A DNA stretch of 49,229 bases from Rhodospirillales bacterium (GTDB taxonomy: Bacteria > Pseudomonadota > Alphaproteobacteria > UBA828). Where the stretch lies: assembly GCA_028818565.1 (NCBI GenBank), contig JAPPNV010000131.1:1-49229 (forward strand). Reading direction: 5' to 3'. This document shows, one piece after another, positions 31,043-41,302 of this stretch. How positions within the stretch are numbered: position 1 is the stretch's first letter; each line of letters opens with the position of its first letter. Both the position numbers and the translations under genes were made by a program. The notes under the pieces were generated by a model. It was not told where the DNA came from. It saw nothing but the letters and a program-made list of their open reading frames with translations, and ran no database searches.

Positions 31043-32356
31043 TCACTCCGCTGCGGCCGCTACCCGGCGCGCTGCCCCGCGCCTGGGCTGGGGCGGCTTG
31101 CGGTACGCGCCATCCTTCATGACCATGAGGATGTTGTTCTTGTCCTGGAACAGCGTGAGGTCCGCCAGCGGATCGCCGTCGATCATGATGAGATCGGCGA
31201 GGTAGCCTTCCTTGACCTCCCCCATCTCGGGAATGCCGCTGCCCTGCGCGTCGGCGAAGGCGTAGAGCTCGCCGCCCAGCTTGGTGGCGGCGTGCAGCAC
31301 CTCGGCCGGGGTGAATTCGAAGTAGTTCACGAAGTGCTCGAAGTCCCGCGTGTCCGTTCCGTGTGGCACCCAGGCAAATGCATAGTCGCCGAAGGGCAGC
31401 ACGCGGACTCCGCGGGCGTGCAGCTTCTTGACGGTCTCGCTGACAATGGCGAGCTCGTGGTGGTGCCGGAGCGCGATCTCGCTCTCCGGCGGCATGCCGA
31501 ATTCCGCGGACTCGTAGGCGGTGTTGTGGGTGATGCCGATCGCCGGCACGACGAAGACCTCGTCCTTGGCCTCGACCAGCATGTCGACAGTCTCGTCGTC
31601 GGCATAGGTCGCGTGGTGGATGATGTTGACGCCGTACTTCAGGCAGAGCCTGACCGATTCCGCAGTGCGCGCGTGGGCGCAGACGCGCCGGTTGCGCTGC
31701 TTGGCGACCTGGCAGACCGCCGCCACCTCCTCTTCCGTCATGACGGTCGTATCGCCCCTGCCGTAGGGGTAAACGAACTCGTCGCTCGAAGGCATGATCT
31801 TGAGGATGTCGACGCCCTCGCGGCAGAGCATCCGTGCGGTCTGGCGGAACTGCTCCTCCCCGTCGCAGATGATCGAGAATGCGCCGTGGTACATGTGGAG
31901 CTGGCGCGCGTCGCCCAGGCCGCCGGTGACCGTCAGCTCCGGCGAGGCTGCAAGGACGCGGGGCCCCTCCATCCTGCCCGCGTTGATCTCGTTGCGGATC
32001 ACGACGTCCATACGGGTCTTGCCCGTCGCGGCGCAGACCAGAGCCGTGAAGCCGTGGTCGTAGAGGATCTGGGCATGGCGCATCGTGATGAGCGTGTTCT
32101 CCTCGGGCGGCGTGTCGCCGAGGGAGTAGAGGCTCGTCCCCTCCTCCGAGTAGCCGATGTGGGAGTGACCGTTGATGAGGCCCGGCATGAGCGTCGCGCC
32201 GCCGCCGTCCACCACCTCCGCGCCGTTCCGCTCGATGCGCTTCTTGCCCTTGACCACCGTCTTGATGCGGTTGCCCTGGACAAGAACCTCGCCCCGATAC
32301 GACTTCTTGCCGGAGCCGTCGAATATCGAGATGTTGGTGAATAGCGTCTGCGTCAT
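31043..32356 (-). CDS. Metal-dependent amidohydrolase family protein
   Basis: It has the N-terminal beta-sandwich and the HxH metal motif (PGLINGHSHIG), with later His and Asp ligands. Length is 437 aa. The SD AAGGGGGG precedes the start. Confidence 0.8.
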   Translation of the reverse strand: MTQTLFTNISIFDGSGKKSYRGEVLVQGNRIKTVVKGKKRIERNGAEVVDGGGATLMPGLINGHSHIGYSEEGTSLYSLGDTPPEENTLITMRHAQILYDHGFTALVCAATGKTRMDVVIRNEINAGRMEGPRVLAASPELTVTGGLGDARQLHMYHGAFSIICDGEEQFRQTARMLCREGVDILKIMPSSDEFVYPYGRGDTTVMTEEEVAAVCQVAKQRNRRVCAHARTAESVRLCLKYGVNIIHHATYADDETVDMLVEAKDEVFVVPAIGITHNTAYESAEFGMPPESEIALRHHHELAIVSETVKKLHARGVRVLPFGDYAFAWVPHGTDTRDFEHFVNYFEFTPAEVLHAATKLGGELYAFADAQGSGIPEMGEVKEGYLADLIMIDGDPLADLTLFQDKNNILMVMKDGAYRKPPQPRRGAARRVAAAAE

Positions 32357-33320: not shown

Positions 33321-34322
33321 ATGCTTCCGAGAGTCGCGATTTTCGCCATGGGCGGCACCATCGCCATGGCCGGGCGCGGTGAGCGCGGCGTCACACCTTC
33401 GCTGGGTGCGGACGCACTGGTGGAGGCGGTGCCGCAGCTTGCCGAGGTCGCGTCCATCGAGGCGGAGACCTTCCGCCTGCTGCCGAGCCCGGAAGTCACG
33501 ATCCCCGATCTGTTCGCGTTGGCCGACGCCATCGAGCAAGCCGTGGCCGATGGCGCCGACGGCGTGGTGGTCACCCACGGCACCGACACGATGGAGGAGT
33601 CGGCCTTCCTGCTCGACCGCATCCTCGATCTTGACGCCCCGGTGGTGCTGACCGGCGCGATGCGCAACCCGACCCTCGCCGGGCCGGACGGGCCGGCGAA
33701 CCTGCTGAACGGCGTGCGCCTCGCCGTGCACGAGCCGGCGCGCGGCCTCGGCGTCATGGTGGTCATGAACGACGAGATCCACGCCGCGCGCTATGTACGG
33801 AAGACGGTCACTTCCAACCCAGCCGCCTTTCGCTCGGCGCCGGCAGGGCCGCTCGGCTGGTTCGCGGAAGGCGCGGTGCGACTTGCCGGCCGACCCGGAC
33901 CCCGCCGCGCGATCGCGGTGGCGCGCGACGCCGAGGTCGCGCCGGTCGCCTTGCTCACGGTGACGCTCGGCGACGATGGCCGACTGATCGAGCGCGCGCT
34001 GGACGCGGGCTATCAAGGGATCGTGATGGAGTGCACCGGCGGAGGCCACGCTGCGGCGTGGGTCGCCGACAAGCTCGCAGACGCGGCCCAGCGCGTGCCA
34101 GTGGTCATGGCATCGCGCACGGGGGCGGGCGAGATGCTGCGCCAGACCTACGACTTCAAGGGCTCGGAGATCGACTTGCTCGCGCGCGGCATGATCAACG
34201 CGGGCTGGCTCGACGGGCTCAAGGCCCGCCTGTTGCTCACGCTACTGTTGATGGCGGGTGGCGACGACGCGGCGATCCGCGAAGAGTTCAGCGCCTGGCT
34301 CGACCCTGACCCGGCGCACTAA
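33321..34322 (+). CDS. L-asparaginase family protein
   Basis: The N-terminus IFAMGGTIAM carries the catalytic Thr motif, and a second motif VVTHGTDTMEESA follows. AGGAG lies upstream of the ATG. Confidence 0.85.
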   Translation: MLPRVAIFAMGGTIAMAGRGERGVTPSLGADALVEAVPQLAEVASIEAETFRLLPSPEVTIPDLFALADAIEQAVADGADGVVVTHGTDTMEESAFLLDRILDLDAPVVLTGAMRNPTLAGPDGPANLLNGVRLAVHEPARGLGVMVVMNDEIHAARYVRKTVTSNPAAFRSAPAGPLGWFAEGAVRLAGRPGPRRAIAVARDAEVAPVALLTVTLGDDGRLIERALDAGYQGIVMECTGGGHAAAWVADKLADAAQRVPVVMASRTGAGEMLRQTYDFKGSEIDLLARGMINAGWLDGLKARLLLTLLLMAGGDDAAIREEFSAWLDPDPAH

Positions 34323-34331
34323 TCTGGTTGC

Positions 34332-35744
34332 TTAGAACTTCTTCCACCAGGGGGTGCGGCCGCCGAGGCCCACCATGTCGACGCCGGTCATGAGCGAGAC
34401 GTCGTAAGTCAGCGCGCGGAGATCGTTGGGGTCGAGGTCGCTCACCCGGTTCTTGCCGCAGGCGCGGGCGAAGAGCTGGATCTCCATGGTGAGCGCGTTG
34501 AGGTAGTTGGTCACGCTGTCGGCGGCCTCGTCCACGTCGAGGCGTTCCATCAGTTTCGGCAGCTGGGTGGTGATGCCGACCGGACAGAGGCCCGTGTGAC
34601 AGTGCTGGCACTCGTAGGGCGAGGTGCCGAGCCGGGCGTAGTCCTCCAGATAGATCGGCTTGTGGCAGCCCATGGCGATGATCGGCGCGGTGCCGAGATA
34701 GACCACGTCGGCGCCAAGCGCGATGCACTTCGCCGCATCCGCCCCGTTGCGGATGCCGCCGCCGACGATGATCTTCATCGTGTCCTTCTTGCCCATGTCG
34801 GCGAGCGCTTCCGAGGCTTCGGCGATGGCGGCGACGGTGGGAATCCCGGCGTGGTCGAGCTGGATCGTGGGCGAGGCCGCGGTGCCGCCCTCCATGCCGT
34901 CGAAGACGATGGCATCGACACCCGCTTTCGCCGCAATGCGGACGTCATTGCCGATCCTGGCGGCGCCCACCTTGATCGAGATGGGCACCTTGTATTCGGT
35001 GACCTCGCGGATCTCCTCGAGCTTCATGTAGAGATCGTCGGCCCCCATCCAATCGGGATGGCGGCAGGGGCTACGTTGATCCACGCCCTCGGGCAGGTCG
35101 CGCATCTCCGCCACCTCGTCCGACATCTTGAGGCCCAGCAGCACGCCGCCGGTGCCGGGCTTCGCGCCCTGACCGGCGCCGATCTCGATCATGTCGGCCT
35201 TCTTGAGGTCGTAGGGGTTCATGCCGTAGCGGCTCGGCAGGTACTGCATCACCAGCTTGTCGGAGTAGCGGCGCTCCTCATGGTGCATGCCGCCCTCGCC
35301 GGTGCAGGTGGAGATGCCGCAGCGGCTCGCCGCCATGCCGAGCGCGCGCTTGGCATGAACCGAGAGCGCGCCGAAGCTCATGCCCGCGATCATGATCGGA
35401 CGCTCCAGAACGAGCGGGTTCTCGCAGTTGCCCTCGCCGATCACCACCTGCGTGTCGCACTTCTCCCGGTAGCCCTCGAGCGGCATGCGCGAGAGACCGG
35501 CCGGCACGAACACGAGATCGTCGAAAGAGGGCAGGCCGCGCCGCTTGGTCGCCTGCCCCCTGATCTGGTATCGGCCGAGGGCGGCCTTCTCCTGAATCTC
35601 CTCGATCACCTCTGGCGGCCAGACTCCGCTGAAGCTGTCGGGCCGCGGATAGGCGCCGTTGGGCGCCGGTGCCGCGTCTTCCAGAACCTCGACAGAGGAA
35701 TCGCCCGCATGGGCCGGAGGCGGTGTGCTCGGGGTCTCGCTCAT
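34332..35744 (-). CDS. FMN-binding glutamate-synthase-family subunit (GltB central domain, GlxD/MgsC-like)
   Basis: Motifs are MSFGALS, GEGG, QGAKPGTGG, GMEGGTAASP and a C-terminal Cys cluster. ATG 35744 overlaps the upstream stop (ATGA). Confidence 0.85.
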   Translation of the reverse strand: MSETPSTPPPAHAGDSSVEVLEDAAPAPNGAYPRPDSFSGVWPPEVIEEIQEKAALGRYQIRGQATKRRGLPSFDDLVFVPAGLSRMPLEGYREKCDTQVVIGEGNCENPLVLERPIMIAGMSFGALSVHAKRALGMAASRCGISTCTGEGGMHHEERRYSDKLVMQYLPSRYGMNPYDLKKADMIEIGAGQGAKPGTGGVLLGLKMSDEVAEMRDLPEGVDQRSPCRHPDWMGADDLYMKLEEIREVTEYKVPISIKVGAARIGNDVRIAAKAGVDAIVFDGMEGGTAASPTIQLDHAGIPTVAAIAEASEALADMGKKDTMKIIVGGGIRNGADAAKCIALGADVVYLGTAPIIAMGCHKPIYLEDYARLGTSPYECQHCHTGLCPVGITTQLPKLMERLDVDEAADSVTNYLNALTMEIQLFARACGKNRVSDLDPNDLRALTYDVSLMTGVDMVGLGGRTPWWKKF

Positions 35745-36445
35745 AGCACGTCCTTCCACGCCGCGAAGTCATGCTTGTTGAAGTGCCACAGTTTGCGGTC
35801 CGACTGCAGCTTGCGGAACTTCGCGGGCGCCTTGATCTCGAAGCGGTCGAGCAGTGCGGCCACCTCGTCGAGCTCGCCGTTCTCTGCGTCGACCTCTTCG
35901 AGCCCGGAGCCCAGCTCCTTCGCCTGGCCTCCGAGGAAGATCACGCCCTGATACATGGAATCGCCGAGGCCGGTATCGGCGTCGCCGCAAACGATCATGC
36001 GGCCGTTCTGCATCATGAAGCCCGACATGTAGCCGGTGTTGCCGCCGACGATGAGCTCGCCCTTCTTCAGGATCATGCCGGAGCGCGGCCCCGCATCGCC
36101 GCACACGACGACACGCCCGCCGCGGATCGACGGCGCCGCCGAGGTGGCAGCATTGCCGTGCACGACCACTTCGCCGCTCATCAGGTTGTCGGCGACGCCC
36201 CAGCCGCAGGTGCCATGAACTTCCGCCGTGATCCCGTCGCAGAGTCCGGCGGTGAAGGAGCCGACATGGCCGCGATAGACGACGTGGATGGGCTTGAGCA
36301 CCGAGACGCCGAGGTTGTGCCGCGCCTGCGGGTTCAGCAACTCGACCTCGGGCACGCCGTCGTCTGCCGCGCGGCGAATCTCTTCGTTGATCGCGCGCGT
36401 CGCCCGGCCGGCGCAGTCGATGGTCAGTGGAGCGGAATTCGCCAC
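35741..36445 (-). CDS. GXGXG-motif subunit (GltB C-terminal domain, GlxC/MgsB-like)
   Basis: It has the repeated beta-helix pattern (VVVHGNA, VVVCGDAG, LIVGGNTG, MIVCGDA). GTG 36445 overlaps the end of the amidotransferase gene by 22 nt. Confidence 0.82.
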   Translation of the reverse strand: MANSAPLTIDCAGRATRAINEEIRRAADDGVPEVELLNPQARHNLGVSVLKPIHVVYRGHVGSFTAGLCDGITAEVHGTCGWGVADNLMSGEVVVHGNAATSAAPSIRGGRVVVCGDAGPRSGMILKKGELIVGGNTGYMSGFMMQNGRMIVCGDADTGLGDSMYQGVIFLGGQAKELGSGLEEVDAENGELDEVAALLDRFEIKAPAKFRKLQSDRKLWHFNKHDFAAWKDVL

Positions 36446-37329
36446 GTCACCACCTCGCCAGCCCCGGGCTCCCAGACCTCGATATCCTCATCGATGCCGT
36501 CGCGCAGCGCCCAGCAATCGGACGAGACCGCCACCAGCCGGTCGGTCTCGCCCACTACCAGCGGCTTGGCCGCGTAAGGGTCCTTGACCACGCCCACCTC
36601 ATCCGCGGTGACGGCGATATAGGTGAAGCAGCCGTCGAGGATCGACACCGAGCGCTCCAGCGCCTCGTGGAAGCTCGCGCCCTTCCCCATCTCGTCCACC
36701 AGCCCCACGGCGATCACCTCGGAATCGTTGCCGGTGGCGAAGGTGTAGCCCGCGCGCTCGTAGTGGTAGCGCAGGTGGTGGAAGTTGGTGATGTGGCCGT
36801 TGTGCATGATGACCAGGTCGCGGTGCAGCCTGGCGGAGAGCGGCTGCCCGTGGGTGAAGTCGATGACGCTCTCCGTGGCGAAGCGCGTGAGCCCCATCGC
36901 GAGCGGCCCGTCGTAATCGGTGATGGCGAAGCGCTCCTCGAGAGTGTCCACGCCCCCCAGGTGCTTCACCACCTCGAGCTGGCCGCCGATGCTGGCAACG
37001 CTGTAGCCGGGCCCCAGCGCGTCGACCGCATCGACGAGCGCCGCATCGTCGCCGTCGTAACGGAGGGTGGTGCGGATGAAGCCTTCGCCGTCGGTGGCGC
37101 GTTCCACCCGGCCGAGCTCGTCCAGCAGCCCCAGCACGCGGCCGCCGCCGCCGGGCTCCTCGCAATTAATGCCGACGTAGAGGCGATCATCGCTCGCCGG
37201 CTGGACCAGAGCGACGCCGGTCGAATCCGGCCCGCGCCTGAAGATGCCGTCCAGCACGCGATAGGCGATCTCGCCGGTCCGGCGATGATGCTCCGTGGTC
37301 TTGAAGAAGACGCCGCCGAGGCCGCACAT
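36424..37329 (-). CDS. Class II (Ntn) glutamine amidotransferase subunit (GlxB/MgsA-like)
   Basis: The N-terminus is MCGLGG, with the nucleophilic Cys right after Met. RGPDSTG and MHNGHITN motifs are present. Length is 301 aa. Confidence 0.82.
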   Translation of the reverse strand: MCGLGGVFFKTTEHHRRTGEIAYRVLDGIFRRGPDSTGVALVQPASDDRLYVGINCEEPGGGGRVLGLLDELGRVERATDGEGFIRTTLRYDGDDAALVDAVDALGPGYSVASIGGQLEVVKHLGGVDTLEERFAITDYDGPLAMGLTRFATESVIDFTHGQPLSARLHRDLVIMHNGHITNFHHLRYHYERAGYTFATGNDSEVIAVGLVDEMGKGASFHEALERSVSILDGCFTYIAVTADEVGVVKDPYAAKPLVVGETDRLVAVSSDCWALRDGIDEDIEVWEPGAGEVVTWRIPLH

Positions 37330-37353
37330 GAGCTCCGCTCCCCTGCGGCGCCG

Positions 37354-37833
37354 TCAGCCGGCCGCCGGCAGCAGCTTGACCTTCCTGTCGAGGTGCGACC
37401 AGGGGATCATCGCGTCGATCCAGGCGTTGACGCGGTCGAACGCCACCATCGCCGCCTCGCAGACCTGCACCACCTCGCCATGGTTCCTGGCGCCGCCCGC
37501 CTCGAAATAGGCGGCGAGCTCGCGCACGAGCTTGACCGTGTTGGTGAGCTTCCACTTGGCGAGCCGGCCGGCATGGCGGTTGAGCAGCGCCGCCGCCATC
37601 TGGTTCAGCGCCGGCGCCGGCAGGGCCTTGTCGAGCGCGAGCTGGCGGACGACCTGGATGTTCTCGCCCATCCAGAAGGTGTTGAAGTTGGCGTAGAGCA
37701 CGGGCGGCATGTTGCCCATCGGTGGCAGACTGTGCGCGCGGAGCCGGGTGATGTCGCCGGGCTCGGAATTCCAGTTGCGTCGGCCGAAGCGCTCCAGCCG
37801 GTCGATGATCGCGGACGTCTCGGTTGCGGCCAT
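37354..37833 (-). CDS. Hypothetical helical protein (159 aa)
   Basis: Codon bias looks coding. The start lies 5 nt after the stop of the upstream small ORF, and the gene ends 24 nt before the amidotransferase start. No motif recognised. Confidence 0.6.
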   Translation of the reverse strand: MAATETSAIIDRLERFGRRNWNSEPGDITRLRAHSLPPMGNMPPVLYANFNTFWMGENIQVVRQLALDKALPAPALNQMAAALLNRHAGRLAKWKLTNTVKLVRELAAYFEAGGARNHGEVVQVCEAAMVAFDRVNAWIDAMIPWSHLDRKVKLLPAAG

Positions 37834-37837
37834 GTCC

Positions 37838-38230
37838 CTACTCTCCCTCGACGAGTTCGAGCCGGACCGGCAGCGGCCCCTTGGCGAGAATCTTCCTGCC
37901 CGCAGGCTTCAGATGCTCCAACCCGTCCACGATCTTCGCGAACACGCTGACCTTCCCGAACGGCTTGGTATCGCCGTAGAAGATGCAGGCGGTCTGGCGC
38001 CCCGGATAAAAGCCGATGTCGCCGGGCTTGACGTTGAGAATCTCGTTCTCCGAGTTGCAGTAGAACGGGAGCATCACGATCAGCTCCTCGCCCGCGAACT
38101 TGGCGTGCACCGAGAAGCTCTCGCAGGGCAAGCTTTCGGTGAACGCCTTGACGACGTTGGGCGCCTTGCGCCCCAGCAACTCGGCAACGACCGTGCGGCC
38201 GTCGATGGTCATCGCGAAACGTTCCGCCAT
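37838..38230 (-). CDS. Cyclophilin-like-fold small protein (DUF3830 / Cyclophil_like-type pattern)
   Basis: The 130-aa protein follows the pattern I associate with this family: 'I.IDGRTVVAEL...AP..V.AF...LP', then 'PGDIGFYPGRQTACIFYGDT' and 'VFAKIV.GLE'. This assignment is from memory only. Confidence 0.55.
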   Translation of the reverse strand: MAERFAMTIDGRTVVAELLGRKAPNVVKAFTESLPCESFSVHAKFAGEELIVMLPFYCNSENEILNVKPGDIGFYPGRQTACIFYGDTKPFGKVSVFAKIVDGLEHLKPAGRKILAKGPLPVRLELVEGE

Positions 38231-38436
38231 GATGTCCCCTCGCCTTTGCGCGGCGTTGCCCGCGCCCTCTGCCGCCCTTTAGCTGCGGCCGCTCCGCCGC
38301 CGTGCGGTTCTTGGGCCGCAGTCGATATCATGGCCCGCCCGGCCGGGCAATCGCACCAGACGCAGAGGAGATTCGCTTTGCGCGCATGGCGGCTTTGGCG
38401 TTCAATCGGCCGCCACCATGGAGAGGGGAGATTCGG

Positions 38437-39834
38437 ATGTCTGATCTGCACGAGCTGATGCTGACCGAGGTCGCGGCGAAGATTCAGTCGCGGGAGGTGT
38501 CCGCCGCCGAGGTTACGGCCCACACGCTCGCGCGGATCGAGCGGCTGGACGGCACACTCCGGAGCTACGCCACCGTGATGGCCGATGTCGCGACCGAACA
38601 GGCGGCGCAGGCGGACGCGGAGATCGCGGGCGGCACGGTGAGAGGCCCGCTGCACGGCATCCCCTTCGGCCTCAAGGACCTCTGCCTGACCAGGGACGCC
38701 CCCACCCATGTCGGCTCGGTCGCGCTCCGCGACTGGAGCCCAGGCGTCGACGGCACCGTGACCGCGCGGCTCAGGGAGGCCGGTACGGTCTTCGCCGGCA
38801 AGCTGCAGATGACCGAGGGCGCCTATGCAGTGCACCACCCCTCGATCACGCCGCCGGTCAACCCGTGGCACCCCGACTACTGGACCGGCGTCTCGTCGAG
38901 CGGGTCGGGCGTCGGCACGGCGGCGCGGCTTTGCTATGGCTCGCTGGGAACGGATACCGGCGGCTCGATCCGCTTCCCTTCGCAAGCCTGCGGCGTGACC
39001 GGCCTCAAGCCCGGCCGGGGCCTGGTCAGCCGGGCGGGCGCCTTCGCGCTCTCAGAGACTCTCGACCATATCGGTCCGATGGCGCGCTCTGCCGCAGACT
39101 GCGCCGCCATCCTCGGCGTCATCGCGGGCTACGATCCCGACGATCCGACCACTGTCAATGCACCGGTGCCGGACTACCTCGGCACCATCGACGCCGGCAT
39201 CGAGGGCATGCGCATCGGCCTCGACGAAGCCTATTGCTCGGAAGACGTGGACCCGCGCGTGACCGCCATGGTGATGCACGCGGCCGACGTGCTGCGCGGG
39301 CGGGGCGCCGACATCAAGCCGATCGCCTTCCCCGACGCCACAGTGGTGGTCGATCGCTGGATCGACTTCTGCGGCGCCGACACGGCCATCGCGCACGAGC
39401 CCTACTTCGCCGAGCGCAAGGCGGATTACGGGCCGGTGCTGTCGAGCCTGATCGAAGTGGGGCTGGCGCTCAGCGGTGTCGACCACGCCCGCATCGTGAT
39501 CGAGCGGGACAAGTTCGCCGGCGCGCTCGACGCGGTCTTCGCCGATGTCGATGCGATCCTCATCCCCTCGCAGCCCTATCCCACGCCCACAAACGCCTTC
39601 ATGGACACCCTGGGCGCCGAGGAAGGCTCGGTGGAGCGCCTGATCTCCTTCACCGCCCCTCACGACATGGCGGGAACGCCTGCCGTCTGCCTGCCCGGCG
39701 GCTTCGACGAGGACAGCCTGCCCCTAGGCTTCCAGATCGTGGGCCCGAAGCGCAGCGAGGAGCGGCTGCTGCAGGCGGGGCACGCCTACCAGCAGGACAC
39801 CGACTGGCACAGCCGCACGCCGCCTGCGGCCTGA
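38437..39834 (+). CDS. Amidase-signature (AS) family amidase 1
   Basis: It has GPLHGIPFGLKD, the Gly/Ser-rich signature GSLGTDTGGSIRFPS and a catalytic Ser-cisSer-Lys pattern. GAGAGGGGAG precedes ATG 38437. Confidence 0.85.
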   Translation: MSDLHELMLTEVAAKIQSREVSAAEVTAHTLARIERLDGTLRSYATVMADVATEQAAQADAEIAGGTVRGPLHGIPFGLKDLCLTRDAPTHVGSVALRDWSPGVDGTVTARLREAGTVFAGKLQMTEGAYAVHHPSITPPVNPWHPDYWTGVSSSGSGVGTAARLCYGSLGTDTGGSIRFPSQACGVTGLKPGRGLVSRAGAFALSETLDHIGPMARSAADCAAILGVIAGYDPDDPTTVNAPVPDYLGTIDAGIEGMRIGLDEAYCSEDVDPRVTAMVMHAADVLRGRGADIKPIAFPDATVVVDRWIDFCGADTAIAHEPYFAERKADYGPVLSSLIEVGLALSGVDHARIVIERDKFAGALDAVFADVDAILIPSQPYPTPTNAFMDTLGAEEGSVERLISFTAPHDMAGTPAVCLPGGFDEDSLPLGFQIVGPKRSEERLLQAGHAYQQDTDWHSRTPPAA

Positions 39835-39847
39835 GGGGGACCACGGC

Positions 39848-41302
39848 ATGGCAGCGAACGGCGGTCTCTGTCGCCTGACCGCAACCGAGGTCGTCGATCT
39901 GCTCCGCCGGCGAGAGGTCTCGCCGCTGGAGCTTGTGGAGGCGAGCGCCGAGCGGATCGCGGCGACGGACGGCCACCTCAACGCGGTTCCGACGCTCTGT
40001 ATCGAACGCGCACGCGCCCATGCGGAGCGGATCATGGCGGAGGACCCCAAGGCCGAGCGCCCGCGCGGCTGGCTCGGCGGCGTGCCGATCGCGGTCAAGG
40101 ACCTGGTGGAGGTCGAAGGCGTACGCACCACCTGGGGCTCGCCGATCTACGCCGACCATGTTCCGCCGCGCTCGGACATCGTGGTGGAGACGCTAGAGGC
40201 GCGCGGCGCCATCGTCATCGGCAAGTCCAACACGCCCGAGTTCGGTGCCGGCGCCAACACCTTCAACGAGGTATTCGGCAAGACCCGCAACCCGTGGAAC
40301 ACCGACAAGACCTGCGGCGGCTCCTCCGGCGGCTCGTCCACGGCGCTCGCCACCGGCCAGGTCTGGCTCGCGACGGGTTCGGACCTGGGGGGAAGCCTGC
40401 GGATACCCGCGAGCTTCTGCAGCGTCTTCGGCTTCCGCCCGAGCCCCGGCCGCGTTGCCCATGGGCCCAAGCACCTCCCCTTCGAGGGGTTGATGGTGGA
40501 CGGCCCCATGGCGCGCAACGCACGGGACTGCGCGCTCATGCTCGATGCCATGAGCGGCGCTCACCCGGAAGACCCGCTCTCCATCGAAGCGCCTGCGGAG
40601 AGTTTTTCCGAAGCGCTGACGACGCTGCCGCCGCCTAGCCGGATCGCCTACAGCCCGGACCTTGGCCTGTTGCCAGTGGACAGCCAGGTCGCCGCCGTCT
40701 GCGCGCGCGCCGTAGAGACGCTTGCCGGCGCCGGTATGGGGATCGCCAAGGCGTGCCCCGACCTCTCCGGCGCCCTCGACGTGTTCCAGGTGCTGCGCGC
40801 AGCGCTCTTCGCTGCCGACAAGGGTGAGATGCTGGAGACCCACCGCGACGCGCTCAAGCCCGAAATCATCTGGAACATCGAGAAGGGGCTTGCGCTCGAC
40901 GCCGACAAGATCGCGCGGGCCGAGCGCGCGCGCGGCGTGATTTACCAGCGCTGCGTGCGCTTCTTCACCCGCCACGACGTGCTGGTCTGCCCCTGCGTGA
41001 TCGTGCCACCCTTCGACGTGGACACACGCTGGGTCGACGAGATCGAGGGCCACCACTTCGACAACTACGTTGACTGGCTGGGCCTCACCTTCGTGCTGAC
41101 GCTGACCGCGTGTCCGTCAGCCTCGGTGCCGGTGGGCTTCACCGAGGCGGGGCTGCCGGTGGGCCTGCAAATCCTCGGGCCGCCGCGCGGCGAGGCGGCG
41201 GTGCTGCGGGCGGCGGCGGCGATCGAGGAGGCAATTTCCCTCGCGGCCGTCACACCCATCGACCCGCGCGGCGCGGACGGCAACGCACTTCCCCTCGCCT
41301 GA
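39848..41302 (+). CDS. Amidase-signature (AS) family amidase 2
   Basis: It has GVPIAVKDL and GGSSGGSSTALATGQVWLATGSDLGGSLRIPAS. It starts 13 nt after amidase 1. Confidence 0.85.
   Translation: MAANGGLCRLTATEVVDLLRRREVSPLELVEASAERIAATDGHLNAVPTLCIERARAHAERIMAEDPKAERPRGWLGGVPIAVKDLVEVEGVRTTWGSPIYADHVPPRSDIVVETLEARGAIVIGKSNTPEFGAGANTFNEVFGKTRNPWNTDKTCGGSSGGSSTALATGQVWLATGSDLGGSLRIPASFCSVFGFRPSPGRVAHGPKHLPFEGLMVDGPMARNARDCALMLDAMSGAHPEDPLSIEAPAESFSEALTTLPPPSRIAYSPDLGLLPVDSQVAAVCARAVETLAGAGMGIAKACPDLSGALDVFQVLRAALFAADKGEMLETHRDALKPEIIWNIEKGLALDADKIARAERARGVIYQRCVRFFTRHDVLVCPCVIVPPFDVDTRWVDEIEGHHFDNYVDWLGLTFVLTLTACPSASVPVGFTEAGLPVGLQILGPPRGEAAVLRAAAAIEEAISLAAVTPIDPRGADGNALPLA

Follow-up and report, generated by a model that had tools for sequence, protein, structure and literature searches.

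We analyzed a contig of a Rhodospirillales bacterium (JAPPNV010000131.1, GenBank assembly GCA_028818565.1; Alphaproteobacteria, GTDB group UBA828) and refer to its analyzed length of 49,229 nt, read on the forward strand, as the window. Its minus strand carries a five-gene operon at 34332-38230, in which two small open reading frames (ORFs) encoding a 130-aa barrel protein and a 159-aa helical protein precede the three subunits (the trio) of a glutamate synthase (GOGAT)-like enzyme. The two small ORFs, hereafter the pair, are a split version of the two-domain architecture of cucumopine synthase, McbB, and KslB. What is new is a link spanning at least five phyla between this pair and its own subfamilies of GOGAT-like and glutamine synthetase (GS)-like proteins, together with the apparent loss of the catalytic glutamate and the occurrence of fused forms. 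Such a linkage suggests a pathway for amine or amide nitrogen that has not been described before and is so far found in uncultured bacteria only.

Two small ORFs form a split McbB/KslB-type fold

The operon consists of the following ORFs, listed from 5' to 3'.

37838..38230, minus strand: 130-aa cyclophilin-like beta-barrel protein, the barrel half of the split McbB/KslB-type fold (Pfam DUF3830, Cyclophil_like, Cyclophil_like2)
37354..37833, minus strand: 159-aa helical-bundle protein, the Cucumopine_C-like half of the split fold (AlphaFold2 model, Foldseek, family profile)
36424..37329, minus strand: class II (N-terminal nucleophile, Ntn; Cys after Met1) glutamine amidotransferase (GATase)-like subunit of GlxB/MgsA type (Pfam GATase_6/7; N-terminus MCGLGG)
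35741..36445, minus strand: GXGXG subunit of GlxC/MgsB type (PF01493)
34332..35744, minus strand: flavin mononucleotide (FMN)-binding glutamate synthase-family subunit of GlxD/MgsC type (PF01645 Glu_synthase, E 1.6e-97)

A preliminary description, made from the sequence alone, had read these as five tightly coupled genes for a cyclophilin-like protein, a helical protein, and a trio of GlxBCD/MgsABC type, and each of these assignments held up. An ORF check of the window found the five ORFs in place; by their coordinates, from 5' to 3', the first two junctions are gaps of 4 and 24 nt and the third is a 22-nt overlap, followed by an ATGA overlap at 35744-35741 that was read directly, as was a GAGGGGA Shine-Dalgarno sequence upstream of the first ATG of the operon. 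The FMN subunit gene likely starts at the ATG of this overlap (35744); its longest ORF begins with a GTG at 35759. Third-position GC content is 0.88-0.94 in all five ORFs, typical of real genes in a window of 69% GC. The five-gene order is identical in four other, independently found genomes, and the same genes recur in dozens of loci in other phyla, so the arrangement is not a product of chance.

The barrel protein scores 49.6, 44.4, and 27.9 bits against DUF3830, Cyclophil_like, and Cyclophil_like2, with gathering cut-offs of 26, 27, and 22.7, respectively. In Foldseek searches its AlphaFold2 model (mean predicted local distance difference test score, pLDDT, 87) matched TM1367/DUF3830 structures with E-values from 3e-9 (TM1367) to 1e-7, the KslB barrel with a query-based TM-score (TMq) of 0.84-0.88 and a root-mean-square deviation (rmsd) of 2.0-2.5 Å, and the McbB barrel with a TMq of 0.84. 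The protein is about 60% identical across phyla, with invariant polar residues at K44, E49, E61-N62-E63, D71, and R78-Q79-T80.

A stand-alone DUF3830 homolog, 32% identical and with no helical partner, is encoded on a Skermanella rosea plasmid (NZ_CP086113.1:54706-69113; locus L106). It is preceded by amidohydrolase, ring-opening amidohydrolase, and acetamidase/formamidase genes and followed by an amidase gene, a context that suggests a connection of the barrel family with cyclic-amide catabolism.

The helical protein matched no Pfam family even at an E-value of 10 (PF18631 was not reached), nothing in NCBIfam, and nothing usable in the ESM Atlas. Its AlphaFold2 model (pLDDT 89) is a helical bundle whose top Foldseek matches in the PDB are only KslB and McbB, so that models of both small ORFs, whose structural comparison the preliminary description had proposed, match domains of these two enzymes. 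VIA-align superimposed 150 residues of the model on McbB residues 156-311 (Z 17.1, rmsd 2.9 Å) and gave Z 15.5-16 for KslB residues 2-149; the best unrelated helical bundle reached Z 11.4. Searching 1.84 billion representatives with a profile yielded 123 relatives, and a broad profile built from 55 of them matches McbB (E 3.9e-15), whose PDB entry was deposited under the name "cucumopine synthase", and KslB (E 6e-11) across the whole helical domain. Several Arg, His, and Lys residues of the bundle are invariant. Three relatives (P0073, P0077, and P0078) lack the barrel and instead begin with some 130 aa of unrelated sequence, which opens with an amphipathic helix and may be a microcompartment-targeting variant.

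Fused forms tie the two halves together. Among the relatives recovered in the representative search are proteins of 285-323 aa with a DUF3830/cyclophilin-like N-terminal half, one of which (P0130) matches Pfam Cucumopine_C below threshold. A profile of the fused relatives aligns to McbB in one stretch over both domains (E 4.8e-17), and in five loci of the survey described below the pair is a single ORF (three Dehalococcoidia, one Ktedonobacteraceae, and one Vicinamibacterales). Because the fused relatives are collinear with McbB, the pair in the window is a genuine split form in the McbB order. Between KslB and McbB themselves, each a helical bundle plus a beta-barrel, the domain order is swapped (PMC12012969), which is a precedent for rearranging this fold. 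The preliminary description had tentatively suggested a cucumopine synthase architecture split in two; as a statement about fold, this suggestion is borne out by Foldseek, by the profiles, and by the fused relatives.

KslB joins L-Trp and 2-oxoglutarate via an iminium; its Arg256 and Lys264 hold the 2-oxoglutarate carboxylates, and its Glu274, equivalent to McbB Glu97, is essential (PMC12012969). We compared these residues with the barrel in sequence alignments of low identity, of which the HMMER alignment to KslB reproduces the residue numbering of PMC12012969. The substrate-binding strand of KslB, H221-A-V223-V224-S225-G-E, aligns with H42-A-K-F-A-G47-E48 of the barrel. In the same low-identity alignment KslB Glu274 falls opposite Pro90, in a G-D-T-K-P-F-G loop. 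An independent alignment through the fused relatives places McbB Glu97 (chain position 118, K-Y-G-P-L-T-E) opposite the same Pro, in an F-Y-G-x-x-x-P-F-G loop. Across 20 sequences drawn from several phyla, Pro90 does not vary.

The pair is linked to its own GOGAT-like and GS-like subfamilies

We searched a sample of 401 alphaproteobacterial genomes for the helical protein and the FMN subunit. The helical protein is present in five, and the five genes are syntenic in all four genomes besides that of the window. FMN subunits of these five genomes are 75-100% identical to the window copy, and those of the other 81 matching genomes at most 58%. In four of the five, a separate, classical FMN copy of 52-53% identity is present as well.

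We scanned one genome per species (185,579 species) with a barrel profile, which gave 93 relatives, and examined the best 80 of the 93 loci. All 80 come from metagenome-assembled genomes (MAGs), of Alphaproteobacteria, Actinomycetota (Gaiellales, Thermoleophilia), Chloroflexota (Ktedonobacteraceae, Dehalococcoidia), Firmicutes, and Acidobacteriota; neither the species-level genome collection nor a set of 72,556 plasmids yielded a cultured isolate with the pair. In 78 of 78 assessable loci the barrel gene has the helical gene next to it or fused to it, and the other two loci end at a contig edge right after the barrel. The preliminary description had proposed a neighborhood survey of GlxBCD-like genes, and here the pair is conserved and does co-occur with them: among the 55 loci whose flanks extend 6 kb or more on both sides, 45 have the GATase-GXGXG-FMN trio within 10 kb. 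A GS-like gene accompanies 28 of these 55 loci and 41 of all 80. Gene order differs by lineage. In other Alphaproteobacteria it is barrel-helical-GATase-GXGXG-FMN-GS; in Actinomycetota and Ktedonobacteraceae, GATase-GXGXG-FMN and then, after other genes, barrel-helical-GS; and in Dehalococcoidia, GS, the trio, and then the fused gene.

Identities of the pair-linked proteins of other phyla are set out below beside those of a classical system, represented by the Paracoccus copy. The reference for the trio subunits is the window proteins; for the GS it is a pair-linked copy from another alphaproteobacterium (locus L022). Pair-linked proteins of other phyla stand nearer to these references than the classical copy does.

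FMN subunit: 57-64% for pair-linked copies of other phyla (44% for one firmicute locus), 54% for the classical copy
GXGXG subunit: 39-52% for pair-linked copies of other phyla, 35% for the classical copy
GATase subunit: 33-40% for pair-linked copies of other phyla, 32% for the classical copy
GS: mostly 48-57% for pair-linked copies of other phyla, 31% for the classical copy

In a quick maximum-likelihood IQ-TREE phylogeny, all 35 pair-linked GS genes form one clade with a Shimodaira-Hasegawa-like approximate likelihood ratio (SH-aLRT) support of 100. The Paracoccus glnT lies outside it and groups with a paralog of the window genome, on contig C162. The trio is of GlxBCD/MgsABC type and belongs to a distinct subfamily, not to the ordinary N-methylglutamate (NMG) system.

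The preliminary description had also held that the usual methylamine partners are absent from the window. This is right as far as it goes: the annotated part of the window has no GS-like gene and no sarcosine oxidase-type gene, and SoxD has no match in the window. A gamma-glutamyl-amide synthetase-like gene does, however, belong to the conserved system, and in most other lineages it comes right after the other genes or close to them. Its ortholog in this genome, on contig C212, falls inside the alphaproteobacterial part of the pair-linked clade and is 71.5% identical to a linked GS, so the "missing gmaS" is a relocated partner ligase that is not GmaS. A 2OG-Fe(II) oxygenase gene of the same orientation precedes the C212 gene.

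Genomic context of the pair

Around the operon, the window contains the following features.

38231..38301, no strand: intergenic region separating the operon from the divergent amidase pair, presumed control region (from coordinates)
38302..41302 (38302-39834 and 39848-41302), plus strand: two amidase-signature-family genes, divergent from the operon (PF01425)
33321..34322, plus strand: asparaginase/glutaminase-family gene, convergent with the operon end (PF00710 and PF17763)
31043..32356, minus strand: Amidohydrolase_1 family gene (PF01979)

A promoter and terminator scan was uninformative and found no sigma-70-like site in 38231..38301, and the amidase pair reached no NCBIfam model. Pfam annotation also placed a major facilitator superfamily (MFS) transporter gene in the operon flanks. 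Some of these neighbors are shared by relatives: the amidase pair sits beside the barrel-helical pair in 15 of the 20 loci of the window's clade, an asparaginase gene lies downstream in most of them, and an amidohydrolase gene recurs near the operon there too. The linkage of the amidase pair and the asparaginase is particular to this clade; a single amidase of the same cluster occurs within 10 kb in six actinobacterial loci and one firmicute locus as well.

We clustered all ORFs of the 80 loci and annotated the recurrent clusters. Bacterial microcompartment (BMC) shell proteins of BMC-H type are encoded in 22 loci, of which 20 are actinobacterial, and 16 loci encode EutN-type vertex proteins. 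About 20 loci carry aldehyde dehydrogenases, and 19 carry DAO-family flavoenzymes, which in NCBIfam best match N-methyltryptophan, glycine, and sarcosine oxidases. In 11 loci an OCD/mu-crystallin-family gene lies immediately 5' of the trio, with SbnB as its best match; SbnB oxidizes an N-substituted glutamate to 2-oxoglutarate and an amine. Regulators of the PucR/GAF and GntR/FCD types and ABC transporters are recurrent near the pair. Taken together, the contexts of the pair look catabolic rather than biosynthetic, and the presence of aldehyde dehydrogenases along with microcompartment shells suggests the release of an aldehyde.

In Thermoleophilia/Gaiellales and in one Desulfovirgula MAG, BMC-H and BMC-P shell genes flank the split pair, and aldehyde dehydrogenase genes are adjacent. 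Such microcompartment contexts include L101:7554-11693 and L077:3375-8983, the latter with an adjacent PduS-like protein, and 20 further actinobacterial loci; the microcompartment is apparently of an uncharacterized type.

In three firmicute loci without a trio, hydantoinase/oxoprolinase A and B genes abut the pair. These are L070, L075, and L076 (e.g. L076:6253-10860), from Oscillospiraceae/Clostridia MAGs, where the pair follows the A and B genes near an Opp-type ABC transporter and no GOGAT-like or GS-like gene lies within 10 kb.

Elsewhere in the window genome (4.1 Mb), eleven matches to the glutamine synthetase family make an unusually large set of gamma-glutamyl-ligase paralogs. GXGXG matches number only three, one of them the window subunit. 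A soxBDAG-type cluster lies on contig C183 and a second SoxD match on C418, both unlinked to any trio or GS in this 92% complete genome. The GlnT/GmaS-like GS on C162, checked like the C183 cluster for a trio beside it, is linked neither to that cluster nor to any trio. Another GXGXG locus (C332:15002-21739) was rejected as the real NMG pathway because its GOGAT-like genes are of a different kind. They encode a class II GATase, a GXGXG-FMN fusion of 652 aa, an 839-aa GltD-like protein (Fer4_20 and Pyr_redox_2, weakly Glu_synthase-like toward the C-terminus), and a LarA-like protein of the lactate racemase family. Copies of the C332 type, about 42-45% identical to the window FMN subunit, recur in many Alphaproteobacteria.

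A possible role and alternative explanations

The reading we favor, though with slightly less than even confidence, is that the operon encodes an undescribed relative of NMG synthase that always comes with the split pair and serves an NMG-like route, catabolic or for nitrogen scavenging, for an amine or amide other than methylamine, with the pair acting on the iminium of 2-oxoglutarate and the amine. We favor it because an NMG synthase-like flavoenzyme, a gamma-glutamyl-ligase-like enzyme, sarcosine oxidase-like and SbnB-like enzymes, and a fold that binds such an iminium in its characterized members co-occur. On this scheme the GS-like ligase would gamma-glutamylate the amine; in the window's clade, where the ligase is unlinked, the neighboring amidases may instead release the amine from an amide. 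The Ntn-amidotransferase subunit would then release the amine at the enzyme, and the FMN subunit would interconvert glutamate or 2-oxoglutarate with an N-substituted 2-iminoglutarate. Barrel and bundle together would bind the iminium of 2-oxoglutarate and the amine, the same kind of intermediate as in KslB and cucumopine synthase, and would form, tautomerize, or hydrolyze it without ring closure. The lack of a ring-closing step would explain the missing catalytic Glu. In other phyla, N-alkyl-amino-acid oxidases or dehydrogenases, aldehyde dehydrogenases, and sometimes a microcompartment may deal with the released aldehyde. The direction of the reaction, the substrate, and catalysis by the pair are points that we infer.

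A bolder form of the idea strikes us as doubtful. It takes the Glu-less split pair to be a so far unseen iminium-handling subunit of the GOGAT-like flavoenzyme that, with a dedicated gamma-glutamyl ligase, would define a widespread route, confined to uncultured bacteria, from amine or amide through an N-substituted 2-iminoglutarate to glutamate and aldehyde. In Actinomycetota the pair would then be the signature enzyme of the uncharacterized microcompartment.

Several observations weigh against the favored reading. The narrow family profile of the helical protein, run against PDB sequences, did not reach McbB or KslB and returned only chance matches to hemolysin E; the sequence link is therefore a second-iteration result, independently backed by the fold match. 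Judged from the alignments above, the catalytic general base of McbB and KslB is not conserved in the pair, so that catalysis by it is putative. With this Glu replaced by an invariant Pro, the pair is probably not a canonical Pictet-Spenglerase, and the opine synthase activity entertained in the preliminary description is unsupported. In the low-identity alignment KslB Arg256 falls at Gly73 and Lys264 at Thr80, so these two 2-oxoglutarate binders appear to lack counterparts at the aligned positions; the invariant Arg78 of the barrel lies two residues before the Lys264-equivalent position on the same strand. Where a DAO-type oxidase occurs the pair is still present, and it is therefore not a simple replacement for the missing N-methylglutamate dehydrogenase. 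In five firmicute loci the pair lacks a trio and has hydantoinase/oxoprolinase or amidohydrolase genes as neighbors; what it does therefore need not depend on the GOGAT-like enzyme and may have to do with amides or lactams. Finally, every carrier of the pair is an uncultured MAG.

The firmicute loci lead to an alternative that we consider unlikely, namely that the pair acts on an amide or lactam (e.g. an N-substituted 5-oxoproline or another cyclic amide) instead of an iminium and that the locus releases amide or lactam nitrogen. The hydrolase genes directly beside the pair in Firmicutes would fit this, as would the two amidases, asparaginase, and amidohydrolase around the operon in the window's clade and the ring-opening amidohydrolase, formamidase, and amidase genes in plasmid loci of stand-alone DUF3830 homologs. 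Cyclophilin-like domains are also found in the 5-oxoprolinase subunits PxpB and PxpC. However, these hydrolase neighbors are lineage-specific, whereas the linkage to GS-like and GOGAT-like genes spans phyla, and the closest structural relatives of characterized function carry out iminium chemistry.

It is similarly improbable that the pair is non-catalytic and serves as a scaffold, chaperone, or specificity or targeting subunit of the GOGAT-like complex, with an encapsulation role in Actinomycetota. The loss of the catalytic Glu, the translational coupling with its fixed stoichiometry-like organization, the position between shell genes in BMC loci, and the fusion of the helical relatives P0073, P0077, and P0078 to a non-cyclophilin N-terminal part are all consistent with such a role. 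Against it, the conservation of the barrel across phyla and its many invariant polar residues would be unusual for a mere adaptor, and the pair occurs in Firmicutes without trio or shells.

The two remaining readings, a Pictet-Spengler biosynthetic role and an ordinary methylamine role, are the least supported. In the former, which we hold to be quite unlikely, the pair would be a genuine Pictet-Spenglerase or opine synthase, joining an aromatic amino acid or amine to 2-oxoglutarate that the GOGAT-like enzyme supplies or processes, with a cucumopine- or beta-carboline-like metabolite as the product. Fold and homology do match McbB, KslB, and cucumopine synthase, and KslB and cucumopine synthase use 2-oxoglutarate; but two independent alignments put the catalytic Glu (McbB E97, KslB E274) opposite an invariant Pro, the neighbors are hydrolases, transporters, catabolic-type regulators, aldehyde dehydrogenases, and BMC shells, and no tailoring or export genes appear among the annotated neighbors. 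An ordinary methylamine NMG pathway, with the trio as MgsABC, the small proteins dispensable, and GmaS and the dehydrogenase elsewhere in a fragmented genome, matches the domain composition and gene order of mgsABC and could draw on the C162 GS that groups with Paracoccus glnT, the C183 soxBDAG-type cluster, and the C418 SoxD match, but is very unlikely given that the FMN subunit is of a separate subfamily and four relatives hold a classical copy besides, that the system's GS forms its own clade at 31% identity to classical glnT, that the C162 GS and the Sox cluster are unlinked to each other or to any trio, and that the pair is invariably present, even in contexts of BMC shells and aldehyde dehydrogenases.

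Implications

Full-text searches of the literature found no description of this gene association, and the main text of a microcompartment catalogue (PMC8217296) does not mention the genes of the pair system. If the favored reading is right, the McbB/KslB/cucumopine synthase fold, so far known from only a few alkaloid and opine synthases, would acquire a far larger branch in primary metabolism, made of two subunits and without the known catalytic residue. At least one subfamily of the GlxBCD-type "glutamate synthase family" genes, routinely taken as methylamine markers in metagenomes, would need rereading. There would also be an organic-nitrogen pathway confined to uncultured Alphaproteobacteria, Thermoleophilia/Gaiellales, Ktedonobacteria, and Dehalococcoidia, and an uncharacterized actinobacterial microcompartment would have a specific candidate for its core enzyme.

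Comparison with known systems

GlxBCD/MgsABC is the nearest known relative of the trio. It has the same three separate subunits (Ntn amidotransferase, GXGXG, and FMN) in the same order, and its classical FMN copies are 52-58% identical to the window FMN subunit. A Paracoccus yeei plasmid (NZ_CP020441.2) carries the classical genes as GATase-GXGXG-FMN-glnT, the same order as the trio and GS in other Alphaproteobacteria with the pair. The classical system includes N-methylglutamate dehydrogenase, whereas no linked one was found with the window system; and the pair always accompanies the window-type system, whereas the classical GlxBCD/MgsABC-GlnT locus of Paracoccus lacks it.

For the barrel, the nearest sequence relatives are DUF3830/TM1367-type proteins (PDB 3KOP, 1ZX8, and 2NNZ; profile E 1e-9 to 4e-11), which share the GD-x-x-Y-[YW]-P motif region. 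These proteins, of uncharacterized function, stand alone without a helical partner, whereas the window barrel is partnered.

McbB (PDB 3X27), KslB (9NS6, 9NST, and 9K0A), and the cucumopine/mikimopine synthases combine the same barrel and Cucumopine_C bundle as the pair, with the barrel-then-bundle order of McbB being that of the window. KslB and cucumopine synthase use 2-oxoglutarate, which is the substrate class of the GOGAT-like enzyme beside the pair. This group of Pictet-Spenglerases is characterized by homodimers with the active site at the interface. McbB, KslB, and the cucumopine synthases are single polypeptides, whereas the window has two ORFs, and they belong to alkaloid or T-DNA contexts, whereas the pair is found in catabolic-looking operons with GOGAT-like and GS-like genes.

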